Part shown: piece by piece, positions 30,095-50,347 of the stretch
Numbering within the stretch: the stretch's first letter is position 1
Layout: every line of letters starts with the position of its first letter
Source: Candidatus Dormiibacterota bacterium
GTDB lineage: Bacteria; Chloroflexota; Dormibacteria; Aeolococcales; Aeolococcaceae
Reading direction: 5' to 3'
Assembly: GCA_963718525.1 (NCBI GenBank)
Contig: OY970355.1
Span: 2,432,001-2,496,000, forward strand
DNA: 64,000 nt
Notes under the pieces: model-generated
Database searches by the model: none
What the model was told of the DNA's origin: nothing
Seen by the model: the letters and a program-made list of their open reading frames with translations, nothing else
Position numbers and translations under genes: made by a program

Positions 30095-30205
30095 CGAGCC
30101 TCACCGTGTAGCGCGGGTTGTTCCGTATGCCAAATGTAGGCGCCGCATCATCAACATCGCATCAACGATTCAGGCTGAAGAAGGACGACGTGTGCCGGTG
30201 ACGTC

Positions 30206-30904: not shown

Positions 30905-30922
30905 GCGCCTCTAGCGCCCTCG

Positions 30923-31082
30923 TCAGGGCGGCGGCTCCACCACGGCAATCCCGTCGGTGATATGGATGCGCCACCCTTCCTCGTGCACCGCACGGTGGTG
31001 CGGCCGGCACAGCGGGACCAGATTCTCAACTCGGTGCGACCACCGTCCGGCCAGTGGATGATGTGGTGCCCGTCAATCCACA
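30923..31082 (-). pseudogene. HNH endonuclease C-terminal fragment (DUF222-type)
   Basis: WIDGHHIIHWPDGGRTE, frameshift, ENLVPLCRPHHRAVHEEGWRI. Confidence 0.75.
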
Positions 31083-31397
31083 AATGTACGTTGATAACCA
31101 GTGACGCGTGAGATCAGGGCCGCGTACGGCAGGAGGTCCCCTCCCCGCACAAGCGAGCGACGAAGACATCTCGCAGCGCGGCCTGTTGAACGTCATTGGG
31201 AGGAAGCGGTAGTGCTGGCCGAGCTGCCGTGCTCCGCGTGGATGTCACCGATCCGGTGCCGGGGCTCACCTGAGCAGGCGGTCGGCCCGCGTCGCCATCG
31301 AATGGCACGCCGGCGCGGGGGTTGGGTGGGCGCCATCGCCCGGGCCAACCCTGACCGCGATCGGCCTGGGAGCCTGGGCGTCGGCCGCGAGGGCGTC

Positions 31398-33298: not shown

Positions 33299-33329
33299 GG
33301 CGTTTCGCGGATCTCGGCGAAGCGAAGTA

Positions 33330-34040
33330 GTGCGATGTGCCGGGCGCGCCGCAGCGCGACAGCCCATCCGTTCCAAGAGAACGAATAGGAGAGCGACCAC
33401 GGCAGCCGACGGCACAACCCAGGCGTTGGGCAACGATTCACCCGGGTACGGTGCTCATAGCCACGGGACCCTCGGTCGTCTGGGCGAAAGTCCTGAACAC
33501 GGTCATCCCCGAAGGCCGCTCTGGCTCGTCGCTTTGGGTGGTGAGCTCACTCTCGGTGCATGCAGCGCCTCGGACCAGGCACCCGCGCTGCACGTGTCCG
33601 CCAGGTCGGTGTCCGCTACACCGACGCCCAACTCGTTGCAGGAGCCCGTCTTCTGGGGGCCGGTCGGAACGGCGTTCACGTTCCAAGACGCTACGGGTAA
33701 CGTGATGACCGTATCCCTCATCGACGTGATGTACGGACCTCAACGGACGAGCGACATCAGCCCGGGCATCGCATATCGGTGGGTTGGCGCCACGTTCAAA
33801 ATCGTCGGACTATCCGACACCTCCTCGGGTGTCCCGAACGCTGAAGCTTCATTATCCCGGGCCCCGGCGACATGAAAAGGTATCGCCCCCAACCCCAACG
33901 GCGTTATGGCCGGCTACCCAAGCTTCCGGGGCGGCTACACCGTCACCGCCTGACAGACGAGCATCGGGTGCGCCAGTTTCAAGGGTCCGTGGGATGACCG
34001 CTGGCAACGGATCGAATGGCGTGCTGGGTCAGGCGCGACG
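33330..34040 (+). pseudogene. degenerate secreted/lipoprotein gene
   Basis: LGACS lipobox-like motif, beta-rich segment, then frame breakdown. Confidence 0.3.
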
Positions 34041-34275
34041 CCGGTCAGCTGGTACGTCCCTGAGCCCTGAGGATCGGTGATCGCGGAATGTTCCCAAGGG
34101 CTGCATCAGGACCTAACCAGGTTGTCGAGGGTGGTCGCCCCGCCGCGTCCTCAGGTGCATCACGTGGTGCTCGTCGAGCCACAAAATCTAAGTGATAACG
34201 AGGGAGGCGTGAAATCAGGACTATGTAGAGCGGGAGATCAACGCTGACCACGATCGGCCAGAGAGCCCGGTTGAT

Positions 34276-34453
34276 GGCCGCGAGGGCGTCGGCCGTTAGA
34301 CCGAGGACGCCGCCCGGATCGCGCCGAACGAGAGAGGGCAAGGATGTGGCGACAGCGTGCCCGGCGACGCACGCGCTTGCGGCCCAACATGCCCATATAG
34401 CGTGTCAGTCAAATCGCCTCCGGATGCGTTAGTAAGGGAGTGATTGGATCAGC
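34276..34453 (+). repeat. ~180-bp diverged direct repeat, copy 2
   Basis: shares CGTGTCAG..AAATCGCCTCCGGA.GCGTTAGTAAGG..GTGATTGGATCAGC with copy 1. Confidence 0.8.
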
Positions 34454-34631
34454 AGATGGCAGGCGCCTGCTCCTCAGTTCGATCGATGGCGTGGTTTCGG
34501 TCGCCGTAGCGCCTGGGTTACCACCGATCGTGGACACGAGTGGGCAGCTCAACTACCCGGGCGGGGGACTCGACCTGGAGTGGTCGTGGTCGGAGGTGAC
34601 GTGGCAACCGGTGACAGGTGCAACGAGGTGA
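34440..34631 (+). pseudogene. chimeric remnant: sigma-like MIGSA start fused to a TolB/WD40-like C-terminus
   Basis: MIGSA-DGRRLLLSS...VTWQP. Confidence 0.45.
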
Positions 34632-35373
34632 GTAGTCACCGGCGCGCGAACACCCTGGTGGTCGCGATGGTCGTCGCGGTGCTGGCAAGCGGGTGCACGG
34701 CGGGCACCGCCCCGACACCCAGGTCGTCGCCAGTCACTACGGCCGTACCGACGCCCGCTCCCACGTTCAGTCCCGGCGTCGCGGCACTCACGGCCGGGAC
34801 GCACGCAACGCTGGTGATGGGTCGGGCAGCTATCCCGAGTACACCGTGGTCGTGCCCAAAGGCTGGTTCGTGTACGAAGGCCGCTTCATCATCACCGGAC
34901 CCACCGAGCCGGTGCTGGGCTTGAGTGTGTGGGACGTGGGACAGGTCTTCCGCGACCCGTGCCACTGGCAGGGCCAGGGGTTCGACCCGGGGCCGAGCGT
35001 GGAGGACCTCGTTGCCGCGCTCGTCGCCCAGAAGATGCGCAACGCCACCACGCCGACCGACGTGACCCTCGCCGGGTACGCGGGCAAATACTTCGAGTGG
35101 TCGGTGCCTGCTGACCTAAAGTCGAGCTCGTGGACCAGCTTCGACGCCTGCGACCTCGACTCCGACGGCGTCCATCGCGACTTCCTCAGCTGGCTTGGCA
35201 ACGGCATGGGCGACCGCTATGAGGAGGTCCCGGGCCAGGTCGACCAGTTGTGGGTCCTCGACGTCAACGGGCAGCGGCTGGTCGTTGACGCCACCTACTC
35301 ACCGGACACCTCCCAAGGTCAGCGGGCGGAATTGGAGCGACTCGTGGACTCACTCCGGTTCAGCGCTCACTAG
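34628..35373 (+). pseudogene. lipoprotein, frameshift near 34805
   Basis: LASGC lipobox in one frame; globular domain (YTVVVPKGW..DPCHW..VNGQRLVV) in another. Confidence 0.65.
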
Positions 35374-35449
35374 GCGCGGCCCCGCCCGCCACGCGGCGAC
35401 AACCGGTACGTTTGACCTGGTCGCCGTGAAGTTGTCGCTCGCTCCGACC

Positions 35450-35599
35450 CTAAACAGTTGCGACTCCGTTCGGTGCGCGAGTCCACGGCCAGCCCGACGC
35501 CGGCGGAATCGCGAGCCCTCGCTGATGCTCGGTTTTGACCAGCTGCCAGCCGCCTTCATGTACCGACCAGTAGTGGCGATGACACAGGAGCACCACATT
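35450..35599 (-). pseudogene. C-terminal part of a DUF222/HNH gene cut by element integration
   Basis: NVVLLCHRHYWSVHEGGWQLV...* begins exactly at the att core. Confidence 0.8.
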
Positions 35600-35624
35600 G
35601 TTCGTTAGTCGCTAATATGACCCC
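35598..35624 (+). repeat. left att site (TT core + arm)
   Basis: TT-GTTCGTTAGTCGCTAATATGACCCC, imperfect inverted copy of the arm at 44621-44645. Confidence 0.8.
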
Positions 35625-35626
35625 CA

Positions 35627-37024
35627 GTGGAGCCTCGCGCCGCAGCCATCTACGCTCGCATCAGCAGTGATGTAGAGGGCTCAGGCCTTGGCGTCGGTCG
35701 CCAGCTCGCCGACTGTCGCGCCTTGGCGAAGAGCCTAGGGTGGACAGTCGCCCAGGAATACGTCGACAACGATCTCTCTGCCTATACGGGCAAGGAGCGA
35801 CCCGCCTACGTGCAGATGCTCGCGGATCTTCACGAGGGCATCCGCGACGCCGTCCTCGTCTACCACCTGGACCAACTCACCCGACGTCCGATCGACCTCG
35901 AACACTTCCTCGCCGTCATTGCAGCCGCACGGGTATCGCACGTTCGCTTCGTGGCGAGCGGTATGGATCTCGCCACGGGCGATGGCTACCTCATGGCCCG
36001 GATGCTGGCCGCCTTCGCCGCCGAGGAGTCCACCGCGAAGAGCCGACGCGTCAGACGGAAGCTCGACGATGTCGCGGCGGCCGGAAGACCACACGGCGGG
36101 TATCAACGACCATTCGGCTACGAGTCGGACAAGATCACGGTCCGCGAAAGCGAAGCCGCGGTCGTCCGCCAGATCGTTGCTCGCTTCACCGCCGGCGAAA
36201 GCTTGCGGTCCCTCTGTCAGTGGCTTGACGAACAGGGGGTGCGCACCGTCAGCGGGAATCGCTGGCGTAGCACAACGCTCCGAGCCATCCTGACGTCCGG
36301 GCGTATCGCTGGTCTCCGCGACCATCGTGGACAGGTCGTCGCGTCCGCCGTTTGGCACGGCCTCATCACGCTCCCGGACCGCGACCGTGTTCTCGCTCGT
36401 TTCGCGGAAATGAAACTCTCGAAACGTCGGGCCCCGCAGCGCTACCTCCTCTCCGGCATGCTGCGCTGCGGTCGATGCAACGGCACCTTGTTTGCTTCAC
36501 CACGCACTCGGACTCGACGACGTTACGTCTGTCTCTCCGGACCCGACCATGGCGGCTGCGGTCGGATTACCGTTACTGCGGCGCCGGTCGAGCAGTTGAT
36601 TGCTGATGCCGTGCTCTACCGCCTCGATACGCCCGAGCTTGCCGACGCCCTCGCCGGACGCGCCGCTGCAGACGAGCGAGCCGCGCTCGTCGCCGATGTT
36701 CTCGCCGCGGATCGCGCTCAGCTGGAAGAACTGACGGACCTGTACGCGTCAAAGCAGATTACCGCCACGGAATGGCTCCGAGCCAGGCGTGGGATCGAGG
36801 ACCGCATCCATGCCGGGGAAGCTCAACTCTCTCGCGCCACCCACACCGAGGCACTAATCGGGCTGCACCGCGGCGACGCGCTTCGCGCTCAGTGGCGCGA
36901 CCTTCCTCTCAGCCGCAAGGTTGCCATCGTCCGTGCCCTGGTCGATCACGCCACCGTTGGCCCGGGGATCAGAGGGGCTCAGCGGCTCGATCCGAACCGT
37001 GTCGAGGCAGTCTGGCGACTCTGA
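35627..37024 (+). CDS. large serine recombinase (integrase)
   Basis: YARISSD catalytic Ser, LDQLTR, RPFGY, zinc ribbon YLLSGMLRCGRC, coiled coil. Confidence 0.95.
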   Translation: MEPRAAAIYARISSDVEGSGLGVGRQLADCRALAKSLGWTVAQEYVDNDLSAYTGKERPAYVQMLADLHEGIRDAVLVYHLDQLTRRPIDLEHFLAVIAAARVSHVRFVASGMDLATGDGYLMARMLAAFAAEESTAKSRRVRRKLDDVAAAGRPHGGYQRPFGYESDKITVRESEAAVVRQIVARFTAGESLRSLCQWLDEQGVRTVSGNRWRSTTLRAILTSGRIAGLRDHRGQVVASAVWHGLITLPDRDRVLARFAEMKLSKRRAPQRYLLSGMLRCGRCNGTLFASPRTRTRRRYVCLSGPDHGGCGRITVTAAPVEQLIADAVLYRLDTPELADALAGRAAADERAALVADVLAADRAQLEELTDLYASKQITATEWLRARRGIEDRIHAGEAQLSRATHTEALIGLHRGDALRAQWRDLPLSRKVAIVRALVDHATVGPGIRGAQRLDPNRVEAVWRL

Positions 37025-37201
37025 TCGGACCGGCATGCGCGCTCGGCCGCCCTGACATGCGGACGAGCGCGCTGCGTCTCCGAGCAGCGCGACAACCTGT
37101 CCGATAACGAGGCGGTCGATCACCTTGACCTCGATACCTTGCGCTGCGCACGAGCGTCGTGCCCACGCCTCCGCGTTGGCCCGTGAGAGGAAGCTCTTCA
37201 C
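36854..37201 (-). CDS. small protein convergent with the integrase (candidate RDF)
   Basis: GTG overlaps the reconstructed relaxase stop; AWARRSCAAQGIEVKVID. Confidence 0.4.
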   Translation of the reverse strand: MKSFLSRANAEAWARRSCAAQGIEVKVIDRLVIGQVVALLGDAARSSACQGGRARMPVRSESPDCLDTVRIEPLSPSDPRANGGVIDQGTDDGNLAAERKVAPLSAKRVAAVQPD

Positions 37202-38530
37202 GAGCCGCCCCGCCACTCAGCGAGCATCCGACGGTGGCGGGCGCGCAAACGTGGACGCGCTGCCTCAATAGCCTCAAACAGCGGCTCATAGCCCGTGTAT
37301 TCGACGACTGCCGCGAGCGTTGGGCCGTACTGCTGCGAGTGATGTCCCTTATCGTGGTGTAAATCCGGGGTGACCTCAGGGCTGCCGACGAGGTAGACAA
37401 AGTAGGCCACCGCGGAGTTCTCTTGGAAGCTCTAACCCAAACCAGGAGACCCACGATGGCCCAGAACAGGATGACGCACCAGGCGCTGATCGATCAACTT
37501 CAGGGCGCGGACACGGACGTGTTGCGACGTGTCCTCGAACACGCCATGCAGCGGCTCATCGAAGCCGAGGCGGCCACGCAGATCGGCGCCGGCCCACACG
37601 AGCGAGCATCGACACGCACCACGTACCGCAACGGCTACCGAGAGCGGGTTCTCGACACCGGCTCGGGACGCCTCGAGCTGCAGATCCCCAAGCTGCGCTC
37701 TGGCAGCTTCTTCCCGTCGCTGCTCGAGCCTCGGCGACGTATCGATCGCGCGCTGCTGGCGGTCGTCCAAGAGGCCTACGTGCTCGGCATCAGCACGCGC
37801 AAGGTCGACGACCTCATGGCCGCCTTGGGTGGCTGCAGCATCAGTCGCAGCGAGGTGAGCCGGATCTGCGCGCTGCTCGACGAGGAGCTCGCCGAGTTCC
37901 GGGAGCGGCCCCTCGATGAGCCGTACCCGTACGTCTGGTTCGACGCGACCTACGAAAAGGTGCGTCAGGGTGCGCGCATCGTGAGCCAAGCGGCGGTGGT
38001 GGCCGTGGGTGTGCGCGACAGCGGCGAGAAGAGCGTGCTCGGGCTTGCGGTCGGCACCAGCGAGAGCGAGGCGTTCTGGCTGGAGTTCTGCCGCAGCCTG
38101 TCGCGACGCGGACTGAGCGGCGTGCAGCTGGTCATCTCCGACGCCCACGAAGGGCTGCGCAGTGCGCTGTCGCAGGTGTTCACTGGGGCGACGTGGCAGC
38201 GCTGCAAGGTGCACTTTCTGCGCAACATGGCCAGCGCGGTCCCCAAGCTCCACGCGCCGGCGGTGCTGGCGGTGGTCAAGTCGATCTTCCTGCAGCCGAC
38301 GCGCGAGACCGCCCGCGACGCGGTGGGGCATGCGCTCACCGTGTTGGAGCCACGCTTTCCCGCGGTGGCAGCCAAGCTGCGTGCGGCTGAGGCCGATGTG
38401 CTCGCCTACCTGGATTTCCCGGTCGACCACTGGCGCTCGATCTCCTCGACCAACGCCATCGAGCGGGTCAATGCCGAGCTCGACCGCCGCGCCAAGGTGG
38501 TGGGCATCTTTCTGCGTCTGTACGCTCTCC

Positions 38531-38718
38531 CGTGGCAGTGGCGGAAGCACCGCTGTTGCTGCGAGGCTCCCGTGGGGCCGAGGGTGACCCGGCATTTTTC
38601 TGTCGAGCCCTCGGGCTCTGACCTGGTTAGGGCCAGTCCCCTCGGTCTTCGCGGGTGGCCGAGTGACCTCATAGCGGCGTGAATACTGAACGGCAGGAAT
38701 GTCCGAGGCCATCCACCC
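38531..38718 (+). ncRNA. IS110 bridge RNA
   Basis: 5' hairpin plus two internal-loop stems whose loop segments match the target flanks and the donor junction. Confidence 0.85.
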
Positions 38719-38740
38719 ATCAACACCACGGAGGGTCGGC

Positions 38741-39796
38741 ATGGTCATCATCGGCATCGATTGCCACACAAGGGTTCATGTGGCTGCAGCCATTGACGGA
38801 TCGGGGCAGGTCTGTGCGCGCTTCACAGCGGGTGCCAAGGCTGAGGAGCTCGAAGCGCTCACAAGGTGGGCGTGCCAACAAGCAGCCGGCCTGATCGCCG
38901 TCGAGGGCGCACGAGGCTTTGGCCTCGCGCTCACTCGATGCCTCCTCGCCGCTGGCTTGGAGGTCGTCGATGTCCCAACGCACATGACCGCTGACGGGCG
39001 CCGTCAGAGCCGCCGTCCGGGAAAGGACGATGAGAGCGATGCGGTGGTCATCGCGCGAGTTGCACTACGTGAACACGACCTGCCGCGGTTGCGTCCGGCG
39101 CATCTTGACTCGGATCTCAAACTGCTGGTGGACGCACGCGATCAGGTTGTTGCAGAAGGCACTCGTGTACGCAACCGGCTGCATGCGCTGCTGCTCACCG
39201 TGTCGCCCGGCTACCGCGATCACACCGGCGCTCTGTCGAGCAAGCGCGCACTCATCGTCGCTCGTCGCTTGGTGCTCCGAGCACGAGCGGCAGATCCGGT
39301 TCGCTGCCGCCTGGCCCTTGCAGCCATTCGCCAACTCCACGCCATCGATGCTGAAGCAGCCGGGCTGGAGGGCGAGATCAAACAAGCCGTGAGCGCAAGG
39401 CACCCGAAGCAGCTGCTCGCCATTTGCGGTGTGAGCACGCTGGTGGCCGGCAAGCTCCTCGGTGAGGCCCACGACATCACACGCTTCCCGACGGCGGCGT
39501 CGTTCGCAGCCCACGCTGGCGCCGCCCCGCTTCCGGCATCGAGCGGCGTCACGCGGCGACACCGTCTCAACCGAGGCGGCAACCGTCAACTCAACCGAGC
39601 CCTCTTCACGATCGCCATGGTGCAGGCACGCTGGCACCCTGGAGCGGTCGCCTATCTGGAGCGAAAACGTGGCGAAGGCAAGCGACCCGCCGAAGCGCGA
39701 CGCTGCCTCATGCGCCACCTTGCGGGTGTCGTCCACCGCGCCATGTTCCTCGACGCGACCGCGGTCAGCGCGAGTTCGGCCATGCCTGCCGCTTGA
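38741..39796 (+). CDS. IS110 recombinase (DEDD RuvC-like + Tnp20)
   Basis: IGIDCH, VEG, KDDESDA, AGAAPLPASSG, RGGNRQLNRAL; RBS GGAGG. Confidence 0.96.
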   Translation: MVIIGIDCHTRVHVAAAIDGSGQVCARFTAGAKAEELEALTRWACQQAAGLIAVEGARGFGLALTRCLLAAGLEVVDVPTHMTADGRRQSRRPGKDDESDAVVIARVALREHDLPRLRPAHLDSDLKLLVDARDQVVAEGTRVRNRLHALLLTVSPGYRDHTGALSSKRALIVARRLVLRARAADPVRCRLALAAIRQLHAIDAEAAGLEGEIKQAVSARHPKQLLAICGVSTLVAGKLLGEAHDITRFPTAASFAAHAGAAPLPASSGVTRRHRLNRGGNRQLNRALFTIAMVQARWHPGAVAYLERKRGEGKRPAEARRCLMRHLAGVVHRAMFLDATAVSASSAMPAA

Positions 39797-40844
39797 CATA
39801 GCGGCGCCCCAACAGCGCCTCACTGCTGCGGCTGTTCACCGCCGTGCTCCAGGACCAGCACGACGAGTGGCAGGACGGTCGCCGACATTTCAGTCAGCAG
39901 TCGATGGCTCGCCTGCTCCACCCCGACGGTCCGCCGTTGCTCACCAACCCGCTCACGGAGGGCCTTGTCGCTTAGTTCACCGACGTTGTGAGAACTCCAC
40001 CGAATTCACACCACTACCCGGGACTTGACCCTGCTGCGCAACGTTGCCGATCGCCTCGTCAGCACTGGGCACTCGTGCCGGCGCGAGGGCTAACTTCCTC
40101 TTCAGGCAGCCCAGGGCGAACTCCGACCACCATGGCGCGGTAACCCAACGAGACCGATTTCCGTCGCGACCCCGATCCTTGAAATCCAGGTAGTGGAGAA
40201 GCAGCTGCCCGAACACCGCCGACCGCTCATTACCGGGCGCCACCGCGACGAGCTCGGCCAAGGCAATGGCATGCTCGTCGCGCGCTTGCATCTCCACGCG
40301 AGTCCACGGCCCGGGCGCTTTCGCTTCGAGCGCCTTGTCGTAAATGCGGACGCGAAGGTCGGACTTTGGCGAGCCGAAGTACAGAGTTCGGCTTTCGGTT
40401 TCACCGAGAGCGTTGACGTACTCCGAGGCGCTCGCCAGCCGAAGATTGCGCACTAGGTGCCCAGCCTTCATCTCTCGATAGCAGCGATCCACACTCAGTG
40501 ACCCGGTTCGGTCATCGAGCGCAACGTCGAGGCGCGTGATCGACCGTCCGCGCTCCAGCAACATCCCGAGGAAGGGTTCCCACTCGGTGACCCGACCCGC
40601 GGCTTCTAGCGCACGGCAAGCCTTGCCGGGCATCCGGACGTGCACGCCCATGCCCGCTCGACCGTCATAGAAAACGTTAGTGCCTTCGGAGAGCCTCGAG
40701 CGCCGGTAGCCCATCGCACCGCGATCGCCCTCGATCCACTCGTCCGACTGGCGCGCGCACACGTCGTCGATGCTTGCCTCGTGCTCGGTCCACTCGAGCC
40801 AATCAACAAAGGCCTCGCTGGTGCGTTCGCCCCCTTCTGTACTG

Positions 40845-40876
40845 GTAACCCCCCTGTTAGTGGTCCGGGGGGTTGC
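40845..40876 (-). promoter_or_regulatory. oriT/dso-like nick-site hairpin inside the relaxase 5' end
   Basis: GCAACCCCCC-GGACCACTAACA-GGGGGGTTAC; resembles the ICEBs1 nicK oriT with CTAAC in the loop. Confidence 0.75.
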
Positions 40877-41265
40877 TGCGCCGTCCTCGACGGACGCGCA
40901 GATGCTTGCCCTCGCATCTTGGGGAGATGGGCCGTCCGAATCGCTGAACACGTCGAATCCTCACGGCTTCGACGGTCCGGTATATCCGTCTCACCACGAG
41001 GGGTTCAGCTACTCTCCACGACGCCGGGCTACTGGTGCCCGCTCCGTTGGCTGTCCGGCGGGCTCGTCTCAATTGAGCCCCTTGTACCGGTGCGTCGCCC
41101 TCGGCCTTATTGGGTCACTTCCCCGCAGGGATACCGGGTTTCCACCGCCGAAGATAGCACATTCGTTCGGTCTCATTCATCCGGCTAGCCAATCGAGCGG
41201 AACACTATCCTGCGCCTTAGCGACATCAATGAGCGAACTCGCGCCGCACCCGCGATGTTGCCGCC

Positions 41266-42984
41266 CTACACCGGGCTAATTGGTACTTCCGAACGACCCT
41301 CCAGTGGTCGAAGATCCAGACTAGTCGAAGGGGTATCCCGCGAAAACTCCACCCAGCATCCAGCGAATTCCGCTGGCTGCTTCACCGTCAATCGGTGAAC
41401 GCCGTTCGCTCGCGGCTGCACATCAACAAGGCGCGCGTCACTAGCACTGCCACCGCCTACCGGGGCTGTGAACTCCATGCCCGGGTTAGTCAGCAGCGCC
41501 TCCATGACCGAGTGCGCTATCCGCTCGACAGCTGCTCGCAGCAGCGTGAACACGGCGCCAGACGGATCAAGCTTGTAGCCGCACCAGGCGGCGACAGCAT
41601 CTATTGAGCCTGGACTCTGTGCGGCTCGCCGCGCTGCCTCGCGTCCTTTAGTTTTGGTCCCCAAGACATCTTCGAGCGTTCCCTGCGGGTGTAGCCACAG
41701 TCCCGCGTCCCTCCAAATTGCCAGCAATCCGTCGATGCGAGCCGCCCAACCCGTGTCCGCAGGTACGTCATTCGCGAGCCACTTTGAACGCGCTTTGGGA
41801 TCGGGTGGAACATTCGCTCTTCTCATCTGCTCCGTCAGAGGCTGCAAGACGCCGGAGGTCCGCGGGGGCTCGGTGTGATACTCGTGCCGGTAGCGTTCCG
41901 TAACCTCCGGCATTGCGTCCATTGCGCGTTGCACCTCCTGTGCAAAGCACGCATCAAGATCCGCAACCGCGCACACGTTGAGACCCATCTTCTTGCAAAT
42001 CTCGTACCACAGAGCAACACCGCCGCTCCCACCACACTCGACGAGGTCTGTCTGTGCGACTACTTCTGCTGGTTGCGTTCGCGCGAGCGATGTGCTTAGC
42101 GCAGAGACGTCATCTACGCCCTCCACTAGCACCGGTCGCGGCGAAAACACGATCTGCCCGATCAAATCGGCGTTGTGTTGCAGTGAGGCGGTGACCCGGT
42201 CCATCTGCGACGCTAGCACGCTGTCGATAATCCGGTCAGGCTTGCGTCCTTGGGAGAAATACCAGATCGCGCTGAGATCCGAAGCTTGTTTCGGACGCAG
42301 AATCGTCGGCTCGTGGGAGACGACAAGTGCTCTTCTGTCTGGCCGACTGCACTCGCGCTCGAGCTCGCCAAGCCAAAGTCGCACCATCGCGGGGTGGAGA
42401 TGAAGCTCAGGTTCGTCAACAACCAGAAGCTGCCAGTCCGTCCGGTAAAGTGCCGTTAGTAGAACGAAGAGCTCGCGCAGCCCATGGCCCTCATCCCTCA
42501 ACAAGGAGTATTCCACGGCGCCAACGCGCACGTAGGGGTCCAGAAAGCCGGACGTCTCGCGCAGCTCGATCACACGATTGAGAGATCTCTGCAGGAACGC
42601 GGCCACTCGCAGCCACACTTCGGGCTGCTCCTTCAGCGCGTACATCTCGTCGATGCCGCTACCGCTCGTTTGCGAGAATCCCCGCGCCTGGTTCCTCTCC
42701 TGCTCCCCGAGCGGAAACCCCCGATGGCCCTCCTGACTCGGAACCGAGGTCCATCCGTAATTCGTGTACGTGCTAAGGCCTGCCAAGCGATCCGTAGCGA
42801 GAAACCGTCCCCCGAGTTGGCTAGCAATCAGCTTTGCAGTACGCGACTTGCCGGTTCCGTTCTGCCCAACGAAATACGTAACGGGATATGCCCAATCCGT
42901 GAGCTCGAAGAATGTTTCCGACCCCGAGCCACCCTTTGGAAAGATCTCGACGGATACCAATTTGACGGGGGGCAACGTCGCCAT
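41266..42984 (-). CDS. OLD-family ATPase-TOPRIM nuclease
   Basis: GQNGTGKS, VVDEPELHLHP, VSHEP, LVEGVDD, ADLD. Confidence 0.85.
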   Translation of the reverse strand: MATLPPVKLVSVEIFPKGGSGSETFFELTDWAYPVTYFVGQNGTGKSRTAKLIASQLGGRFLATDRLAGLSTYTNYGWTSVPSQEGHRGFPLGEQERNQARGFSQTSGSGIDEMYALKEQPEVWLRVAAFLQRSLNRVIELRETSGFLDPYVRVGAVEYSLLRDEGHGLRELFVLLTALYRTDWQLLVVDEPELHLHPAMVRLWLGELERECSRPDRRALVVSHEPTILRPKQASDLSAIWYFSQGRKPDRIIDSVLASQMDRVTASLQHNADLIGQIVFSPRPVLVEGVDDVSALSTSLARTQPAEVVAQTDLVECGGSGGVALWYEICKKMGLNVCAVADLDACFAQEVQRAMDAMPEVTERYRHEYHTEPPRTSGVLQPLTEQMRRANVPPDPKARSKWLANDVPADTGWAARIDGLLAIWRDAGLWLHPQGTLEDVLGTKTKGREAARRAAQSPGSIDAVAAWCGYKLDPSGAVFTLLRAAVERIAHSVMEALLTNPGMEFTAPVGGGSASDARLVDVQPRANGVHRLTVKQPAEFAGCWVEFSRDTPSTSLDLRPLEGRSEVPISPV

Positions 42985-43347
42985 CTCGGGGCCAGGCCTC
43001 AGCAGCGAGTTAGCACGACGACGATCGCCGCGAGATCGTTGCGCACGGTGCTAACTGCGACACGCACTGATCCCACCCCCAGCTCAAGACGCAATCATCT
43101 GAAGGGAGCGATCGAGATCCTCGTCCGTGGCAGCGTAACCGTGTCCTGTAGGCCACACAAATACAATCCTGCGACATCCCGAGAGACTCCAGGTCGGCAC
43201 GGGGACGCGACAGCATCAGCACCGCACGCTTCGCTTCGGGCACGAATCGACCGTAGTCGCCTAGCTGCCCGATACTCATCCTGACCGCCTCCCCAGTAGT
43301 TGTGCCTTTCGCTTCGATGAGAACTCAAGGATCTCAGTCATGCGCCG

Positions 43348-43638
43348 TTACATCGTGTAGAGCGACTTCAAAGCTTCCCAGTCCTTCTTGCCGCGACCAG
43401 CCCAGCTCCTATTGGCGGCCGAGGGAAGCCGAAAAACGCCGATCCCCGCTGGGGAGTGTGGAACATACGCTGCCAACTCGTCCCTCCATTGTCGCGCTGT
43501 TCCTCCTTGTACGACCCAAACGTCCTTGAACCCATGCCATGCCTTGTACCCGTTTCGCTGGAAGTGTGCCTGGATAAGGCTCCGCTGGGTGACGTTGATG
43601 CCGTCCGCAGCGATCAGGAAGAAGTCGCTATCGGCCAT
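43348..43638 (-). CDS. small hypothetical protein, possible ferredoxin-like (Cas2/VapD-like) fold
   Basis: overlaps the TIR gene end; FFLIAAD..WHGFKDVWVV..WRDEL..WAG pattern. Confidence 0.65.
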   Translation of the reverse strand: MADSDFFLIAADGINVTQRSLIQAHFQRNGYKAWHGFKDVWVVQGGTARQWRDELAAYVPHSPAGIGVFRLPSAANRSWAGRGKKDWEALKSLYTM

Positions 43639-44539
43639 CTGTCGTCTCGCCTGCGTCAGCATCCTCGCTGCCCGCCTCAGGCCCGGAGCTTGAGTTTGAC
43701 CCCTCTGATTCGCTCACTTCGTCCTCCTCGGTCTCCCGCCGGTGAGGGATCTGCCCGCCGACTCGTATCCCGTAAAAGGCCGCCATCTCACGTACCGACG
43801 CCATCACATCCTCAGGCATGGGCATGTCTGAAACAATCCAGAGTTCCTTCCCCGAGGTATCACGCCCCGCCCGAGCCGCCGGGTCAACCCCTCTTAGAAT
43901 CGCTCCGACTTCACCCCAGAGGGGATGGCCCGCGGTCATCGATGGCTCAGCGGGCGGACTGGTCGGATGACGAACGATGCTGCGCACCGTCGCCAACACC
44001 TCCTCTAGCAACTCTCGATCACTGCGATCAGTACTCTTCGCTGCTGCGGCCGTCGAGTGGTCGATATCAGCAAACATTCTTTCAAGGTCGGGCCACCATT
44101 TCTCCACGGCCTTGTCTAGCACCGCCTGCGCTAACGGTCTGTCGGGAGGCGTGCAAGCCTCGTTGATCGACCGCATGATCGCCGCAACGCCCATCTTGTC
44201 GGCCGGTCGCCCTTGGAACTGACCGAGCGGTGGGGTGACGTCCGTCTGCTTAAGATCCACAGCCAAGGGCACTACCCGGTTGGACCCAACGCCTTTGGCC
44301 AATGCCCCGGCTTCGAAGTTGAGCCAGGGGGCGTGCTGATTCTCGACGGTGACGCAGATGATTCCGAAACTCGTTTCCTGCAACTGATCCGCAATCTCTG
44401 CTTCCCATCGCGCTCCCGCCGCGATATCCGTGGCCGACATGAACGGCTCCACGCTGTTGATCACCTGAGGCATCCAGTCTCGGAGTGCCGTTGCGACCGC
44501 TTGGCTCTTCTCTCCCGACCAGCTAAGGAATACCTTCAC
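43628..44539 (-). CDS. TIR-domain protein
   Basis: MKVFLSWSG, GARW, WLNFEAGAL (catalytic Glu), PLGQFQ. Confidence 0.9.
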   Translation of the reverse strand: MKVFLSWSGEKSQAVATALRDWMPQVINSVEPFMSATDIAAGARWEAEIADQLQETSFGIICVTVENQHAPWLNFEAGALAKGVGSNRVVPLAVDLKQTDVTPPLGQFQGRPADKMGVAAIMRSINEACTPPDRPLAQAVLDKAVEKWWPDLERMFADIDHSTAAAAKSTDRSDRELLEEVLATVRSIVRHPTSPPAEPSMTAGHPLWGEVGAILRGVDPAARAGRDTSGKELWIVSDMPMPEDVMASVREMAAFYGIRVGGQIPHRRETEEDEVSESEGSNSSSGPEAGSEDADAGETTDGR

Positions 44540-44620
44540 GAGCTGGAATCCTACGCCGGCCTCTGACCTGACACTTCGACGCGAGCCTCTCTAGCAGGGT
44601 CTCCGGCGGTGCGCAGTAAG

Positions 44621-44647
44621 GGGGTTGTATTAGCGATTGACGAGGTT
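44621..44647 (-). repeat. right att site 1
   Basis: GGGGTTGTATTAGCGATTGACGAGG-TT. Confidence 0.8.
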
Positions 44648-44897
44648 GGCCAGTTAGATTGGCCGCGCGGTCGACGAACTTTCGGATTAGGCCGTCGACC
44701 TTTGTACCGCGACGTGCTGGATCGCTCGTCTCTTTCGATCGAGGGACCTCGGCGGAACGTAACGTTCGCGCCGTTGTCGTGGCCATTGACAACTCGCCGG
44801 GCGTTCACCGAGAATCACATCCCGTCCCGCAGATTCTGATTGTGCCTCCGAGGATTTGCCGTTTGGCAATCAGGTCGAGACAGGAGGACCTTGAAGA

Positions 44898-45722
44898 ATG
44901 GGCACGATCACCACTGCCGATGGCACGGAGATCTTCTACAAGGACTGGGGGGCGGGCCAAGCGATCGTGTTCAGTCACGGCTGGCCGCTTTCGGCTGACG
45001 ACTGGGACGGCCAGATGCTGTTCTTCCTGCACCATGGCTACCGGGTCATTGCCCACGACCGGCGTGGGCACGGCCGCTCGTCGCAGACCGGCGATGGTCA
45101 CGACATGGACCACTACGCCGATGACCTGGCGGCGCTGACTGCACATCTAGATCTCCACGACGCCGTTCATGTCGGCCACTCGACCGGTGGCGGCGAGGTC
45201 GTACGCTACGTCGCCCGGCACGGTGAGACCCGCGTCGCGAAAGCGGTACTCATCAGTGCGGTACCGCCGCTCATGGTGCAGACCGACGCCAACCCCGGCG
45301 GCCTGCCGAAGAGCGTGTTCGACGACCTGCAGTCCCAGCTAGCCGCCAACCGGTCCGTGTTTTACCGAGCCCTGCCGTCGGGACCCTTCTACGGCTTCAA
45401 CCGGCCCGGCGTCGAACCCTCGGAAGCGATCATCGAGAACTGGTGGCGGCAGGGGATGATGGGGGGAGCGAAGGCACATTACGACGGCATAGTTGCCTTC
45501 TCTCAGACCGATTTCACAGAGGACCTCAAGAAAATAACTGTGCCCGTGCTGGTAATGCACGGAGATGACGATCAGATCGTTCCCTACGGCGACTCCGGCC
45601 CGCTGTCCGCGCAGCTCGTCCAGAACGGGACGCTGAAGACGTACCCCGGGTTCCCACACGGCATGCCGACCACCCAAGCCGAGACGATCAACGCCGATCT
45701 GCTGGCCTTCATCCAGTCCTGA
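44898..45722 (+). CDS. non-heme chloroperoxidase-type alpha/beta hydrolase
   Basis: [34 protein letters not shown]. Confidence 0.93.
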
Positions 45723-45932
45723 CCGGCCCACCGCGTTATGGGACCTTGTGGGGCTGAGATCCGGGCTTCGCAGCGGCGGTGCCAATCGGAAGAGATAAAT
45801 CGCCCGTAAGCCGAATCCAGGAGGATAGGTCCGGTCACGGTGAACCCCGGGAGGCCGAAGTCCAGGGCGACGACATGACGCCAGGTGACGTCCTCACGCC
45901 GCCGACGTTGATCTCACTCGGCGGCTCTTGAG

Positions 45933-45959
45933 GGGGTTGTATTGACGATGGACGAGGTT
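45933..45959 (-). repeat. right att site 2
   Basis: GGGGTTGTATTGACGATGGACGAGG-TT. Confidence 0.8.
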
Positions 45960-46200
45960 CTCGAGGTTCTCGAGCTCTCTCGGTTGGCGATGCAGCCGGT
46001 CGCGCCGCCCAGATCATCACGCCGTCACGCGACCCAAGTTGCGTGTCGCTGCGGAGGCGCTGGTACTCGGGCCGAGGCTTGTTGGGGTTGAAGGCGCTGA
46101 TGTCGTCGTCGACACAGACCGCGGCGGATGCTCCAGCCCCGCCGCTGCGCCTCGTCGAGACAGTCCGCCTCCTGGCGCTGGACAGCCAGGCGCTCGGCTG
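45960..46200 (-). pseudogene. serine recombinase N-terminal remnant
   Basis: VDDDISAFNPNKPRPEYQRL..DGVMIW / DRLHRQPRELE, parallels the integrase at 35627. Confidence 0.7.
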
Positions 46201-46258
46201 GCTGCTAGAAGCTGATATTCGCTCCCAGGCGGAGGGCGGCAATGCCGTCGGTTAGGTC

Positions 46259-46774
46259 CTACTTGCCCTGAAGCTTCAAACGTTCGTCGCGCTCGACGGC
46301 CGCATCTTGGAGGACTTCCCACTTATCGAAAACGCGCCCTCCACCTGCCGCTCTCGACGATTCGACGAGCCACTTGAACGCATCCCACATTTGTATGCTG
46401 TGCCCAGCAAACATTGTGAGGATGAGTTCGTTGTCGAGCAGGCCGCCGCAATAGACGGTCCCAAGTTCCTCCCAGAAGTTGAGTAGCCGGTAGACACGCA
46501 GTCTCTGGGGGTGGGGGGCTTGGCCGAACATCTGTGTGTGTGCAGCGATCGCGTGGGCGCTCGACCCAGGCGGCAAACCGAATGTCCGCAGGACGAAGCT
46601 AGTGTTGCGGACGAACTCAGGGGCCCAATAGCGTTCGAAATACCGAATCACGGTGTCGAACTTTGCGGCGGCACGGCTCGCTCTGAGGCTTCGCCAAGCG
46701 ATCACGGCAGCGGCGACAAGCAGAACCGCTTGGACAGCAGATGCTACCGTTGCGATCGTTTCGAGAGTCAGCAT
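46259..46774 (-). CDS. DUF4760-like membrane-anchored protein
   Basis: N-terminal TM helix; LLNFWEELG..GLLD..W.. Confidence 0.6.
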   Translation of the reverse strand: MLTLETIATVASAVQAVLLVAAAVIAWRSLRASRAAAKFDTVIRYFERYWAPEFVRNTSFVLRTFGLPPGSSAHAIAAHTQMFGQAPHPQRLRVYRLLNFWEELGTVYCGGLLDNELILTMFAGHSIQMWDAFKWLVESSRAAGGGRVFDKWEVLQDAAVERDERLKLQGK

Positions 46775-47076
46775 GGCAACTCGAAACCGTTGTCAGCGGT
46801 CGGTCAGTGTCCGGCGGCGTTGAGCAGGCGTGACCTCCAACCTCTGCCGAAGGCAGCCGTCAGCTTCCGCCGTCCGGGTCAAGGTGGAGGGAAGTACGGA
46901 TCGTTCATCGGGGCCATCTCGCTACAGCGGATTGTTGGGTCGATGGAATTGTACGCACCGGAGGGGGGTTCAAAACAAGTTACCCGGAACGGCCGAGGGT
47001 TGGCAACATCGGGCCCGGTTCGAAACCGCGGATCGACGGCGGGGTATTCTCGCCTCCCAACCCACAAGATCGGCGC

Positions 47077-47484
47077 CTAGCCTTTGCCCTCAGGGTCGTA
47101 GTGCTTCTTGATGGCAGGGTGATCGGTCATCAGTTGCTTCAGCACAGGCTTTTCGAGCGCGACCGAGAACGAATCCAACGCCTTCTGGGCCGTGTCCAGC
47201 TTGAGTTCGCTCCTTTGCAACGCGTCCGCGGTTTGAGACTTGTCCTTAGTAGCCGCTTCGGCTGTCTTGTCGGCCGCATTCGCTCGTTGGGTTGCTTGCT
47301 CGTTTGTCTGTCGAGTAAAGAAATACGTGATGAACGACCCCGTCACCACCCCTACGAGCCCAGAGAGTAGCGTCCAGATCTTGACCGCATCATCAACTGA
47401 GTACCGAAGGATCGCCGCAATCGTAATGCTGGCAACGGCTGCCAAGATCCCTACTCCAACAACCGCGGAGGCGGTTGGATTCAT
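47077..47484 (-). CDS. two-TM hypothetical protein with coiled coil
   Basis: two hydrophobic helices ending in ..TYFF, then a heptad-like tail. Confidence 0.55.
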   Translation of the reverse strand: MNPTASAVVGVGILAAVASITIAAILRYSVDDAVKIWTLLSGLVGVVTGSFITYFFTRQTNEQATQRANAADKTAEAATKDKSQTADALQRSELKLDTAQKALDSFSVALEKPVLKQLMTDHPAIKKHYDPEGKG

Positions 47485-47738
47485 GAGTGTGGCCCTCCCT
47501 AACTGATCGAATGGAGCGATTAGATCACCCCATCCGCCGGGTTGTCCACCCGCTCGGGGGCCGGGTGGTGCCTCAGCCGCCGGCCGGTCGCGGGCCGCCT
47601 CCAACGTGAGGTGCGGCCCGGCACAGCTTGGGCTTGGGCGTCGCCCCGGAGCTGGACAGCCCGGGGTTCAGGTCCGTCAGCGATTCATGCGGTAACGAGG
47701 CGCTTCACAGCGTCGACACTGCTTTCCCCCGTTCGGTC

Positions 47739-47765
47739 GGGGTTGTATTAACGATGGACGAGGTT
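47739..47765 (-). repeat. right att site 3
   Basis: GGGGTTGTATTAACGATGGACGAGG-TT, abutting HNH codons GGNTDLE. Confidence 0.8.
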
Positions 47766-48663
47766 CTCGAGGTCGGTATTGCCGCCGTGGCTCTAGTGCA
47801 CCACGTGGTGGCCTTCGGTCCATGCGGGGCGGACGGTCGCATCCCGGGAAGCGGCAGCCCTGGTCGCGAAGAACCAGCGCGGTGCGGAGGTGCGCCGGGA
47901 TCGTCCGCGTGGCCCGTCCCACCGAGAGCGGCAGTGGACGTGTGCTCCCGGCCAATGGCGGCAAGATCGACCAGCGCGTCGGCCCTGCGCTGGGACGCCA
48001 ACCGCTCTTCGCCCCGACTCATCCCGTGACTGAGCGCATCGATCGCCGTCTTCACCAGCGCGCCGCCCTCGGCGTCGAGCTCACCACGGAGGACGAACAC
48101 GCCCCCATAGGTCTGCTCGCACTCGAACCAGCGGCGTTCGTGGGCGCAGTTGTCATCGGCGAGCACCCCATCGGGGTCGAGGCGCAGCCGGGTGGCCTGG
48201 GTGAGCATGCGCACGGCCCGGGGCTCAAACGTCTCCGCCGCGCCCACCAGGACGTGCTCGAAGGGCGCCAGCTGCGCCACGCCGACATCCTCGGCGAGGT
48301 GGGCGATCATGGTCACGTTGCTGAAGGAGGCGCGCCCGGTACGATCGCTGTCGAGCGTGGCCGGCAGCTCTCCCAGGGTCCGGGCCAGGTGGACGCGGTG
48401 GCGGCCGCCTTCACGGTCATCCCGCAGGCACGTCGCAGCCAGGACACCGTGCTCCCCCCGCCATCGGCCTGGGCGCCCCGCTCGCGATGAAAGCGGTGCA
48501 GACGGCGGATGGACTCGGCCTCCAGCCGATCGATCGCCCGGCGGATGTCGACGATGTCCTGACCCAGGGCGTGCGTCGAGAAGCCGTCGATGGACTCTCC
48601 GACGAGGGTATCGACCGCCTCACGCAGACGGTCTCGCGCATCCGGTATGGCGAACGCTTCCAT
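47764..48663 (-). pseudogene. DUF222/HNH (13E12-like) gene, N-terminal part, frameshifted
   Basis: STVSWLR, RLDPDG, SQRRADAL, RDQGCRFPGCDRP, WTEGHHVVH*SHGGNTDLEN. Confidence 0.85.
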
Positions 48664-48670
48664 ACAGGAT

Positions 48671-48691
48671 ATTATACCAAACACCTGTTCG
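48671..48691 (-). promoter_or_regulatory. LexA SOS box next to -10 of the DUF222 gene
   Basis: CGAACAGGTGTTTG-G-TATAAT-N7-ATG. Confidence 0.7.
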
Positions 48692-48960
48692 CCACAACAC
48701 GGACAATGTGCCCTCACAAGTTACAGCCACGGATAGCGGAAATATCGCACGCGGCTGAGGGCGACCAGGGCCGCAATCACAACTGCGAACACGGCCCCTA
48801 TGGCCGTTCGGACCGAGCACGACCGTTGCCTGGTGCGAGATTCACTTCGACGAAGCTCGCGCGCGCACGCCGTCGCCACCAACCACGCATGCCGTCGCCA
48901 CCAACCACGCCCGTCCGATAGGGCTACGTGTCCCCCGCCGGCGATAGCGCGCCGTCGTCG

Positions 48961-49482
48961 CTACGGATTCCCACGATCGATGACCGTCGTGGGTCGGAAG
49001 CTGGCCAACGCGAGCTCATACCGCTCTCCTTGCCGGCCGCCAACCTCAACCGGTCCAACGCCAACAAACCCGGCCTTCGTCAGCACCCGCCGTGAAGCGG
49101 CGTTCTCGTTGCTGGTGGCCGCCCTCAACGTCCGAAGCCCGTACTCATCGCGGGCAAGCCGGCACATGCGTCGCAATCCAGCCGTCGCAACGCCACGTCC
49201 CGCGACGCATTGCGCGATGCGATACCCGACCTCCGCGGTCCCATCCACGAGTTCATACAGATTGAAACGGCCGACGACCTTCTCGTGCTCATCGACAAGG
49301 ACGTGTCCGATGCTGAGCCCCGCTTCTTGTTCGGCGAGGAGCGCGCGGTATCGCTCCGCGAAGTGTTCATAGAAATCATCGCCACGATCGCTGATCGAGT
49401 TGGCGAAGTACGCGCGGTTCGCGAGCTCAAAATCGAGAATCGCTGCCTCGTGGTCGGGGCGAAGCCGCTCCAGATCGAACAC
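48961..49482 (-). CDS. GNAT N-acetyltransferase (RimJ/RimL-like)
   Basis: EVGYRI..AGRGVAT, NAASRRVLTKAGF. Confidence 0.88.
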   Translation of the reverse strand: MFDLERLRPDHEAAILDFELANRAYFANSISDRGDDFYEHFAERYRALLAEQEAGLSIGHVLVDEHEKVVGRFNLYELVDGTAEVGYRIAQCVAGRGVATAGLRRMCRLARDEYGLRTLRAATSNENAASRRVLTKAGFVGVGPVEVGGRQGERYELALASFRPTTVIDRGNP

Positions 49483-49854
49483 CTGTCAAACGTACTCTGA
49501 CTGAGCGTCCCGGCTACCGACTGCGTGCGAATGGTGGCCGCAATTGGATGGAACCTCCGGCTTGTGCGATGTCAAGGTGCGGCTCACCGGCCTTGCGATC
49601 GGACTGAGATCGTGAGTCAAGGCGGCCGTTGCCCGGGCGCTGGAAGACGCGGAAAACAACCGTGAGTCAAGAGGACTCCCTCGCGGTCCCCACTGTCCGC
49701 TCCAATACCTTTGCGTGTGGCCAGCCTTGCATCCTCCTCGGGCACGCCGTCCACAACGCGGTCGGGCGGCCGTTACCATGCTGCGGTGACCGACGAAAGC
49801 CACGGCTTCGGACGGCGAGAGGTTCGTCCGACTCCGATAGCGAGTTGACGAGTT

Positions 49855-50301
49855 ATGCCCGATACGATGGATAACGACCTCCGATGGCTTGTGCTGCCGC
49901 TCGCAGCCGTCACAGCGCTGTTGGGTATCGTGCAGTTCGCAAGGCTCACCGAGCTCGCGATCCAAATTTCTGGCATGTCCGGCGCCCCCTCTTGGTTGCA
50001 CCTGTTGCTGCGCTGGGAGTGGCCTGACCAGGTGCTTTGGACCGCGCCGATCGCCGGCGGAGTCGGAGGAGCGCTCGCCTTCCTGCGTTGGCGCGGGTGG
50101 TTCGGTCGAGCGCTCGTCGCCGTTGCAACGCTGGCGCTAGTCGTCGCAGCGGTCGTCTCAGTCGGCGAGTGGGGCTGGTCGTCCACGGTCCAGCTGGACC
50201 CACTATCTGGCCGACCTCTGGTCGCCGTGTCGTTCTGCGCGGCACTCGCTCTCACGCTTCTGTCCACGCGTCGGCGGCCGATACAGGCCGTGGAGCGGTG
50301 A
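49855..50301 (+). CDS. hypothetical membrane protein
   Basis: about four hydrophobic helices. Confidence 0.5.
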   Translation: MPDTMDNDLRWLVLPLAAVTALLGIVQFARLTELAIQISGMSGAPSWLHLLLRWEWPDQVLWTAPIAGGVGGALAFLRWRGWFGRALVAVATLALVVAAVVSVGEWGWSSTVQLDPLSGRPLVAVSFCAALALTLLSTRRRPIQAVER

Positions 50302-50347
50302 GCCCGCGGATCGCTGGAACCCGGCTGGTTTGTATTCAAAAAACCAA

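Follow-up and report, generated by a model that had tools for sequence, protein, structure and literature searches.

HNH-gene fragments as a putative docking platform for a large-serine-integrase element and cassette arrays in Dormibacterota

In the window (the whole 64,000-nt stretch analysed here, G000:C1:2432001-2496000 of the single-contig 3.34-Mb genome G000), an element carrying an intact large serine integrase was found inserted among fragments of HNH genes bearing the DUF222 domain, followed by two cassettes without an integrase. The element covers 9,048 bp (35598-44645) and pairs on its right with R1, the innermost of three right attachment (att) sites. We consider it rather probable that such HNH-gene fragments form a docking platform for large-serine-integrase elements, and that excision with a variable number of cassettes builds and shuffles arrays at pads of the type B-O-X. 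In such a pad, B would be an HNH C-terminal fragment, O the TT crossover and X a B'-type half-site of 20-30 nt. The sites, the intact integrase, a precise empty form, arrays throughout the genus and the reassortment of cassettes with breakpoints at the crossover were all observed; composite excision as the vehicle, a directionality factor, a transfer route and the birth of new cassettes are what we infer beyond them.

The integrase element and its attachment sites

The main features of the locus are as follows.

35450..35597, minus strand: HNH C-terminal fragment, the B half-site of attL, reading N-VVLLCHRHYWSVHEGGWQLVKTEHQRGLAIPP (sequence; tblastn)
35598..35625, plus strand: attL crossover TT (35598-35599) and P' arm GTTCGTTAGTCGCTAATATGACCCCC (repeat search; read-derived joints break at 35597)
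35627..37024, plus strand: large serine integrase, 465 aa, intact (Pfam Resolvase 8e-26, Recombinase 1e-12, Zn_ribbon_recom 2e-10)
44621..44670, plus strand: first right site R1, with P arm (44621-44645), TT (44646-44647) and a truncated B'-type half-site, X1
44648..45957, plus strand: cassette 1, with half-site X1, an alpha/beta hydrolase (44898-45722; Pfam Abhydrolase_1 3e-28) and a P arm
45933..45985, plus strand: second right site R2, with P arm, TT (45958-45959) and an HNH-like half-site, X2
45960..47763, minus strand: cassette 2, with a serine-recombinase remnant, a DUF4760 protein (46259-46774), a membrane protein (47077-47604) and a P arm
47739..47790, plus strand: third right site R3, with P arm, TT (47764-47765) and a full B' running into the HNH/DUF222 gene
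47766..48729, minus strand: decayed N-terminal part of a DUF222-HNH gene (Pfam DUF222 2.7e-10), c1025 paralogue type

Contigs from four soil-metagenome runs of one study (X1-X4; assembled contigs, not raw reads) were aligned to 30200-50100 of the window; since each contig has a single depth figure, depth differences between runs were not used as evidence. One 787-nt contig of run X2 joins 35597 to 44646, with sides of 536 and 251 nt, 0 mismatches and three ambiguous letters (TTG). The mobile unit is therefore 35598-44645, with R1 as the right partner. Run X2 also contains contigs from the interior of the element, so the filled and empty forms coexist in that sample. The exchange recorded in the 35597-44646 contig was conservative and precise, without target duplication and with only TTG common to the two sides. 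R1 adjoins only about 25 nt of HNH-like sequence ahead of the hydrolase cassette, and a truncated B'-type half-site therefore evidently suffices. A second joint, from 35597 to 47764 (12,166 bp), was found in run X4 in a single low-depth contig whose one side is 28 nt long, a weak hint of a larger form. Three further joints were set aside. The joint 31062-47805 (runs X1 and X3), a candidate 16.7-kb deletion form, was rejected because its loose end at 31030 reads into the P arm of the other element of the genome, that is, a paralogous DUF222 copy mapping in two pieces. The joints 35149-48538 and 45130-35843 (run X3) were discarded for their 20-nt sides or foreign letters.

An earlier sequence-only reading of this DNA had proposed four related arms with a TT core, one left and three right, and both the repeat search and the read-derived joints place them there. 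R1, R2 and R3 form a family of direct repeats (44621-44655, 45933-45967 and 47739-47773; 80-100% alike), and the left arm is an inverted counterpart of the first right arm (35602-35625 versus 44620-44643; 24 nt, 83% complementary). The P' arm, and with it attL, ends 1 nt ahead of the integrase open reading frame (ORF). The deduced attP of about 52 bp consists of the P arm (25 nt), TT and the P' arm (25-26 nt). A site of about 50 bp with imperfectly inverted arms around a 2-bp crossover, together with hybrid attL and attR sites, is the arrangement of a serine-integrase attP. Both read-derived joints break at 35597 on the left, with TTG (R1 joint) or TT (R3 joint) ambiguous, and TT is the sole base pair common to all B-side and P-side sites read; the most likely crossover is thus the TT within the HNH motif's Asn codon. 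As for circles of about 9.0, 10.4 and 12.2 kb, which the same reading had predicted, the sizes agree: 9,048 and 12,166 bp follow from the contig joints and 10,360 bp from arithmetic.

The integrase has all three domains expected of a large serine recombinase (PF00239, PF07508 and PF13408, each above the cut-off), and its sole sequence match in the PDB was the catalytic domain of the TP901-1 integrase (5e-09). Behind it, the element carries the following cargo.

37335..40031, plus strand: IS256-family insertion sequence (IS) element, transposase 37423-38682 (Pfam)
about 38511-39808: IS110-family element nested in the IS256-family element, transposase 38699-39796 (Pfam; contig joints skipping 1296 bases)
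39977..40951, minus strand: rolling-circle replication initiator (Rep_trans, Pfam 1.4e-27)
41266..42984, minus strand: OLD-family ATPase/TOPRIM nuclease, defence cargo (Pfam; PADLOC Old 3e-21)
43628..44539, minus strand: TIR-domain protein, defence cargo (Pfam TIR_2; PADLOC TIR-TM 1e-65)

Pfam detected no phage structural genes among the ORFs of the element. No Tra/FtsK domain was detected by Pfam in the element ORFs scanned; of the integrase, Rep and FtsK-like Tra that mark an actinomycete integrative and conjugative element (AICE), the integrase and Rep alone are present. In the genome G020 the integrase is followed directly by Rep. Other copies of the IS256 element, with and without the nested IS110, were found in G000 and its relatives; those in G000 include the compound form at 2241344 (95%) and the plain one at 742017 (99%).

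Homologues of the integrase with 49-79% identity were found in Blastococcus, Modestobacter, Geodermatophilus, Nocardioides and metagenome-assembled genomes, one of them titled Candidatus Dormibacteraeota. In nine of the ten relatives from other genera, a P' arm is joined to an HNH C-terminus directly upstream of the integrase, and in five, attR, a single P arm fused to the N-terminal part of HNH, was found 4.0-5.3 kb downstream. When the relatives' P' arms were used to look for inverted counterparts, allowing up to 9 mismatches, no P arm turned up; the P arms emerged only from the P-arm pattern search. RepSA-like Rep genes lie between the integrase and attR of these elements, which also contain several small ORFs of no assigned family. 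In the window itself, the DUF222 domain was detected by Pfam on the flanking gene and the HNH motif occurs at both junctions, as for a target of the REP13E12 type. These findings support a family of non-phage serine-integrase elements that targets the Asn codon of the HNH motif in multi-copy DUF222-HNH genes, much as the sequence-only reading had supposed.

Cassette arrays in the genome and the genus

Outside R1 lie two integrase-less cassettes, each composed of an HNH-derived B' half-site of 20-30 nt (X), cargo and a P arm, so that every cassette boundary is an attR-type site (P-O-X). The cargo described in the sequence-only reading was recovered as regards the TIR and OLD proteins, the hydrolase, the DUF4760 protein and a membrane protein; its dead second integrase proved to be merely a remnant of about 75 aa, and the IS256/IS110 elements and Rep had not been listed. 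This remnant of a serine-recombinase N-terminus (VDDDISAFNPNKPRPEYQRL...) lies on the minus strand at about 45990-46225, aligns with the live integrase by BLASTP (E 2e-07, 14/35 identical) and has no Pfam match. It is inverted relative to the live integrase, with its truncated end adjoining R2, an arrangement at odds with a simple decayed-core origin for cassette 2. The half-site X2 (45958-45975) contains a 9-nt tandem duplication (GGTTCTCGA x2) that repeats the crossover-proximal bases. The hydrolase ORF of cassette 1 is 92.5% identical to a gene of another species in another context (L029, G017:C18). The idea that the hydrolase cassette is a conserved mobile unit was nevertheless dropped, because G017 shares the ORF alone, with homology stopping at the ORF ends, in a non-array setting beside a tRNA-like sequence.

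The search of the genome and its relatives for the arm motif, which the sequence-only reading had suggested as a check, was run with a 27-nt P-arm pattern allowing up to 3 mismatches, and the pattern read backwards served as the control. G000 contains 13 P arms and two P' arms, each of the latter directly ahead of one of two large serine recombinase genes. Across the genus, 132 P-arm matches were found in 30 of 42 genomes versus 0 for the reversed control in all 42, more than chance would give, and many of the matches form same-strand rows with a spacing of 0.6-7 kb. Integrase homologues of at least 55% identity occur in three of these 42 genomes, which are 61-92% complete (G000, G017, and G020 with a broken gene); all the others reach at most 48%. 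The phenomenon is wider than had been noticed from the window, with arrays across the genome and the genus that mostly lack an integrase.

In G000, eight P sites have no nearby integrase, and four of the eight form an array at 1862-1872 kb. Homology among the sites of this genome is confined to about 40 nt before and about 45 nt after the crossover. A second element of 24 kb at 1001826-1025692 (L001, L002) has the layout of the window element: attL and an integrase are followed by 22 kb of cargo and then by two P sites, an inner one and, 1.4 kb beyond it, an outer one beside DUF222. The two ends of this element have 9 nt in common, and joining them restores a clean HNH motif, GGRTELDNLVSLCRPHH. 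The cargo includes Prim-Pol/PriCT, a small resolvase, and HmaA and HmaC of an Hma-type defence system (PADLOC E 0 and 1e-243). G017:C165 repeats the layout of the window, with an integrase (60% identity) followed by three P sites. Besides 12 array loci that were fetched, L031 was examined. An HNH C-terminal pad stands at the upstream end in seven array loci (L031, L038, L039 and L041-L044) and in two loci of G000, all of them integrase-less. The array ends at a P site adjoining a DUF222 N-terminal part in L031, L041 and L044, and in L039 about 22 aa of HNH are all that the last P sites adjoin. For L038, L042 and L043 the DNA covered shows no DUF222 end, and the remaining array loci run off their contigs.

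After removal by eye of two spurious hits in G000 that lack the GGGG start, 56 of the 58 listed sites remained. Fifteen of these continue into a long HNH sequence, and the other 41 keep a short X, mostly 6-9 HNH codons (e.g. GATELN), about the length of an attB half-site. A minority possibility is that X is the remnant of an older P' arm left by integration into attL, as in ssrA islands. Resemblance to proximal P' arms is seen in some X, but HNH codons can be read in most. A semi-conserved sequence, TCGGCGG(G/C)(C/T)CTNGAG, is found in the 15 nt upstream of about half of the P arms (e.g. window 45918-45932; L037, L043 and L039). It lies outside the usual half-site length and may be an accessory site or a terminator.

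The flanks of the sites were compared to follow the cassettes between genomes. Four inter-genome pairs of sites had 88-98% identity over the 300 nt after the crossover and 58-64% over the 273 nt before the P arm, where unrelated segments give a background of 61.2% on average (range 57.3-64.8, n=48). Among the 1431 pairs of 54 sites, with a flank cut-off of at least 80%, both flanks matched in 0 pairs, the upstream flank alone in 2 and the downstream flank alone in 9, about six of which are DUF222 paralogues. One X, together with the sequence after it, is shared by G027, where a B arm precedes it, and G012, where it follows a P arm (91.7% over 60 nt, upstream unrelated), the relation that would be expected of an empty and an occupied pad. 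Within G000, a pad at 1873844 and an occupied site at 2951592 are, by eye, homologous over about 90 nt. These comparisons show that cassettes reassort as units, with the crossover as their boundary. In the G000 array, a 757-bp cassette (1866155-1866908) has 85% identity to part of a G019 cassette (L046, G019:C2), although the two are oppositely oriented relative to the P arms.

Docking model and alternative readings

The structural model of serine integrases holds, in the available part of its source, that a stable synapse needs two pairings of a P-type with a B-type half-site; attP x attB and parallel attL x attR are permitted, and attR x attR aligns only antiparallel (PMC3783163). In the mechanism proposed here, the integrase element would dock at a pad by attP x attB, at the Asn codon of the HNH motif, and would leave by attL x attR, in which the attR may be that of the element or a more distal right site. 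The departing element could carry 0, 1 or 2 cassettes to another HNH pad. A later departure of the element alone would leave the cassettes behind and regenerate a usable B-O-X pad, and arrays would therefore grow and reshuffle at the B-proximal end by canonical serine-integrase reactions only. Such a mechanism explains why the integrase stands at the B end, as in all 3 of the integrase-bearing arrays, why X has half-site length, why every P-X junction is a potential breakpoint and why many arrays lack an integrase.

Several points weigh against this model. The sequence-only reading had proposed one left site with alternative right sites, and of the forms so predicted the precise 9.05-kb empty site is well documented by its contig. 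The 10.4-kb form was not seen in the assembled contigs of the four runs and the 12.2-kb form depends on the 28-nt side, so composite excision is not demonstrated. Likewise, the circle junction (P-O-P') was not seen in these contigs, and the empty form of run X2, instead of being a product of excision, may be an ancestral allele that was never occupied. No directionality factor or transfer gene was identified for the element, and the model does not explain how the first X-cargo-P unit arose. Because close integrase homologues occur in 3 of the 42 genomes and P arms in 30, most arrays may be inert. Some X resemble the proximal P' arms (11/14) as much as HNH (9/14) when compared by eye. Finally, the relation between the two HNH C-terminal fragments at 30913-31088 and 35450-35597 is not accounted for.

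The scarcity of integrases would also follow if the outer P sites and their cargo were fossil scars, that is, older elements stripped of their integrase ends by deletion and without a present role in mobility, so that only the 9-kb element is alive. The dead recombinase fragment in cassette 2, the decayed DUF222 part and the solid contig support for the attL x R1 form alone are consistent with such an origin. Random deletion, however, predicts B' remnants of any length, and 41 of the 56 sites keep an X of about half-site size; the 27-nt P arm is preserved within 3 mismatches at 132 sites. In addition, cassettes recur in other genomes beside other neighbours with breakpoints exactly at the crossover, and one X follows a B arm in one genome and a P arm in another. 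On balance, we regard the scars as an unlikely account of the arrays. The arrays may instead work as a true integron analogue, in which a resident integrase acting in trans would release cassettes as P-O-X circles by attR x attR and place them at pads by P-O-X x B-O-X. The same-strand rows of small cassettes spaced 0.6-3 kb apart, the X at the start and P at the end of each cassette with the pad regenerated at the B end, and the reassortment of single cassettes would all suit such a system. However, the attR x attR pairing aligns only antiparallel and would be unproductive with the non-palindromic TT core, as far as the available part of the structural model goes (PMC3783163), and no joint between two right sites was present in the assembled contigs of the four runs. 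We hold this mechanism to be quite improbable, and of the term integron-like used in the sequence-only reading, the architecture stands; free integrase-less cassette circles would need pairings that the accessible text of the model disfavours (PMC3783163).

The sequence-only reading had further supposed that one DUF222-HNH gene was hit repeatedly at one codon, with attL and the outermost right site as its two halves. On the minus strand, the sequence to the left of attL reads N-VVLLCHRHYWSVHEGGW, and that to the right of R3 reads HHVVH*SHGGNTDLEN and continues into the DUF222 domain; intact HNH copies in the genome read GGETNLENLVLLCHRHHW. The in-frame join ...GGNTDLE-N-VVLLCHRHYWSVHEGGW reported earlier is correct by sequence and tblastn and gives an HNH motif of normal length, though with an in-frame TAG (HHVVH*SHGG), and the weak contig with the 35597-47764 joint agrees with a single gene. 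The paralogue types of the pieces point elsewhere. The C-terminal piece at attL (NVVLLCHRHYWSVHEGGWQLV) is of the c184 type, that of three intact copies, and the DUF222 part beyond R3 is 98.8% identical over 771 nt to a copy at G000 1025.7 kb that is split by the second integrase element of the genome. The two pieces differ in type, and the in-frame join 35597-47764 is therefore, judged from their sequences, a chimera of two HNH paralogues. The C-terminus of the c1025-type copy is NLVSLCRPHHRVVHEEGWRIHIADGIAVVEPPP, and its counterpart in the window, located by tblastn, is the fragment at 30913-31088. An intact and empty orthologous DUF222-HNH gene occurs in G008 and G002 of the same genus, and its 3' end aligns with 30921-31081, not with 35450-35600. 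Since the well-supported empty form also ends at the inner site, which is the functional partner of attL, repeated integration into one gene is very improbable, and the claim is not supported in that form.

The docking model is thus to be read against a locus holding at least three HNH-derived pieces. The DUF222-HNH part at 47766-48729 contains the in-frame TAG and an internal deletion of about 214 nt. The third piece is the following.

30913..31088, minus strand: mini HNH 3' fragment (pad0), with an uninterrupted attB-like region, HHIIHWPDGGRTEL / NLVPLCRPHHRAVHEEGW, and a 1-nt frameshift (tblastn)

This fragment adjoins the metallo-beta-lactamase (MBL) gene of the conserved left flank. The layout of 30913-31088 and 35450-35597 fits a Campbell-type homologous insertion of a circle carrying a mini HNH, for which it is a candidate.

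Relation to known systems and neighbouring sequence

Bibb and Hatfull reportedly found in 2002 that several REP13E12 copies are used as attB by phiRv1, a prophage-like element of Mycobacterium tuberculosis whose serine integrase is Rv1586c. The present element is similar in that a large serine integrase targets a multi-copy HNH gene of the DUF222/REP13E12 type. Unlike phiRv1, it has no phage genes and carries a rolling-circle Rep and defence cargo, and its target is often a mere truncated HNH fragment. We know of no arrays of extra attR-type sites with cassettes described for phiRv1. In the part of a Mycobacterium tuberculosis gene listing available, the 'probable phiRv1 integrase' Rv1586c stands beside the 'partial REP13E12 repeat protein' Rv1587c (PMC1931498). 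The AICE Faln2929 of Frankia alni, in the available part of its description, has a serine recombinase and RepSA, disrupts a putative endonuclease gene and was detected in excised form (PMC3218068). The window element resembles it in combining a serine recombinase with a RepSA-type Rep, and the combination of integrase and RepSA is likewise the core of the integrase relatives in Geodermatophilaceae. Faln2929 differs in having tra genes, where the window element has no FtsK/Tra-like gene by Pfam, and the accessible portion of its description reports no cassette arrays (PMC3218068). Because the layout of the relatives matches Faln2929 and phiRv1 uses REP13E12, the choice of target is of an already known kind. 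What is unusual is the arrays, a form of accretion at a serine-integrase site.

To our knowledge, serine integrases are regarded as strictly pairwise, entering by attP x attB and leaving by attL x attR, and accretion arrays are known mainly from tyrosine recombinases and Ccr-type enzymes. The closest analogues are the composite islands of the staphylococcal cassette chromosome (SCC) and the ssrA islands of Dehalococcoides (Ccr/DsiB), which, according to the part of the source available, are tandem units at one site between repeated att-like sequences (PMC3146451). Some of the ssrA/SCC units lack an integration module and are proposed there to be cis-mobilisable by accretion (PMC3146451). Tandem units between repeated att-like sites, some of them integrase-less, were likewise found here. 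Those islands, however, have as their docking site the 3' end of an essential single-copy gene, which stays intact, whereas the arrays described here lie in a disrupted, multi-copy, selfish HNH gene. They are also large islands served by a CcrA/B-type pair; here a single TP901-1-like integrase is associated with cassettes of 0.6-3 kb, and the repeat has a hybrid structure that combines a P arm with a B' half-site.

Integrons contain same-orientation rows of promoter-poor cassettes that end in recombination sites, insertion is platform-proximal, and arrays are often integrase-less (clusters of attC sites lacking integrase, CALINs). Their IntI is a tyrosine recombinase acting on folded single-stranded attC by attI x attC, and their cassettes form autonomous circles. 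The arrays described here share the one-orientation rows of small cassettes, each ending in a recombination site, but use a serine enzyme and duplex half-site hybrids as sites. It is conceivable, though we would put it below an even chance, that split HNH genes are the platforms of a second, serine-integrase cassette system, in which a few integrase-bearing 'tugs' stock and reshuffle the arrays of many genomes, and which would have arisen independently, from a phiRv1-like integrase, as a counterpart of integrons in function. The literature searched, which left most subscription journals and supplements outside its coverage, contained no account of serine-integrase arrays of cassettes in HNH genes.

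A phiRv1/TP901-like integrase thus appears to maintain arrays of small cassettes, with a selfish multi-copy HNH gene as a safe and renewable landing pad, and the window presents together an integrase element docked on an array and a natural empty-site allele. If composite excision proves true, it would provide a mechanism of gene-cassette exchange in Dormibacterota, a hardly studied uncultured phylum; the natural truncated attB half-sites would define a minimal site, and the integrase family, with its many natural pseudo-orthogonal sites, might be of use in genome engineering.

The 4.4 kb between the two HNH C-terminal fragments (31089-35449) contain no P arm and include the following genes.

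31426-32085: extracytoplasmic function (ECF) sigma factor
32036-33298: DUF642-like protein
34693-35373: lipoprotein; several paralogues lie close to HNH genes of relatives

Mini HNH 3' fragments recur at G000 1871860-1871937, in L043 (G015) at about 6045-6200 and in L044 (G065) at about 10259-10420. They begin about eight codons ahead of the motif HH at a common boundary, ...C(A/G)CAAATGTA, and the 5' boundary of pad0, ...AAATGTA, is found again at all three places. By their sequence, these fragments suggest either a portable module that carries attB or a small HNH ORF standing on its own. The string H*SHGG occurs in two separate HNH remnants (window about 47790-47800 and G000 about 2194930), the TAG replacing the Trp codon of HW, and may reflect one pseudogene lineage or conversion between copies. 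Between the DUF222 gene and the conserved right flank, 48730-50347 holds about 1.4 kb more than same-genus genomes, including a GNAT acetyltransferase on the minus strand (48961-49482).

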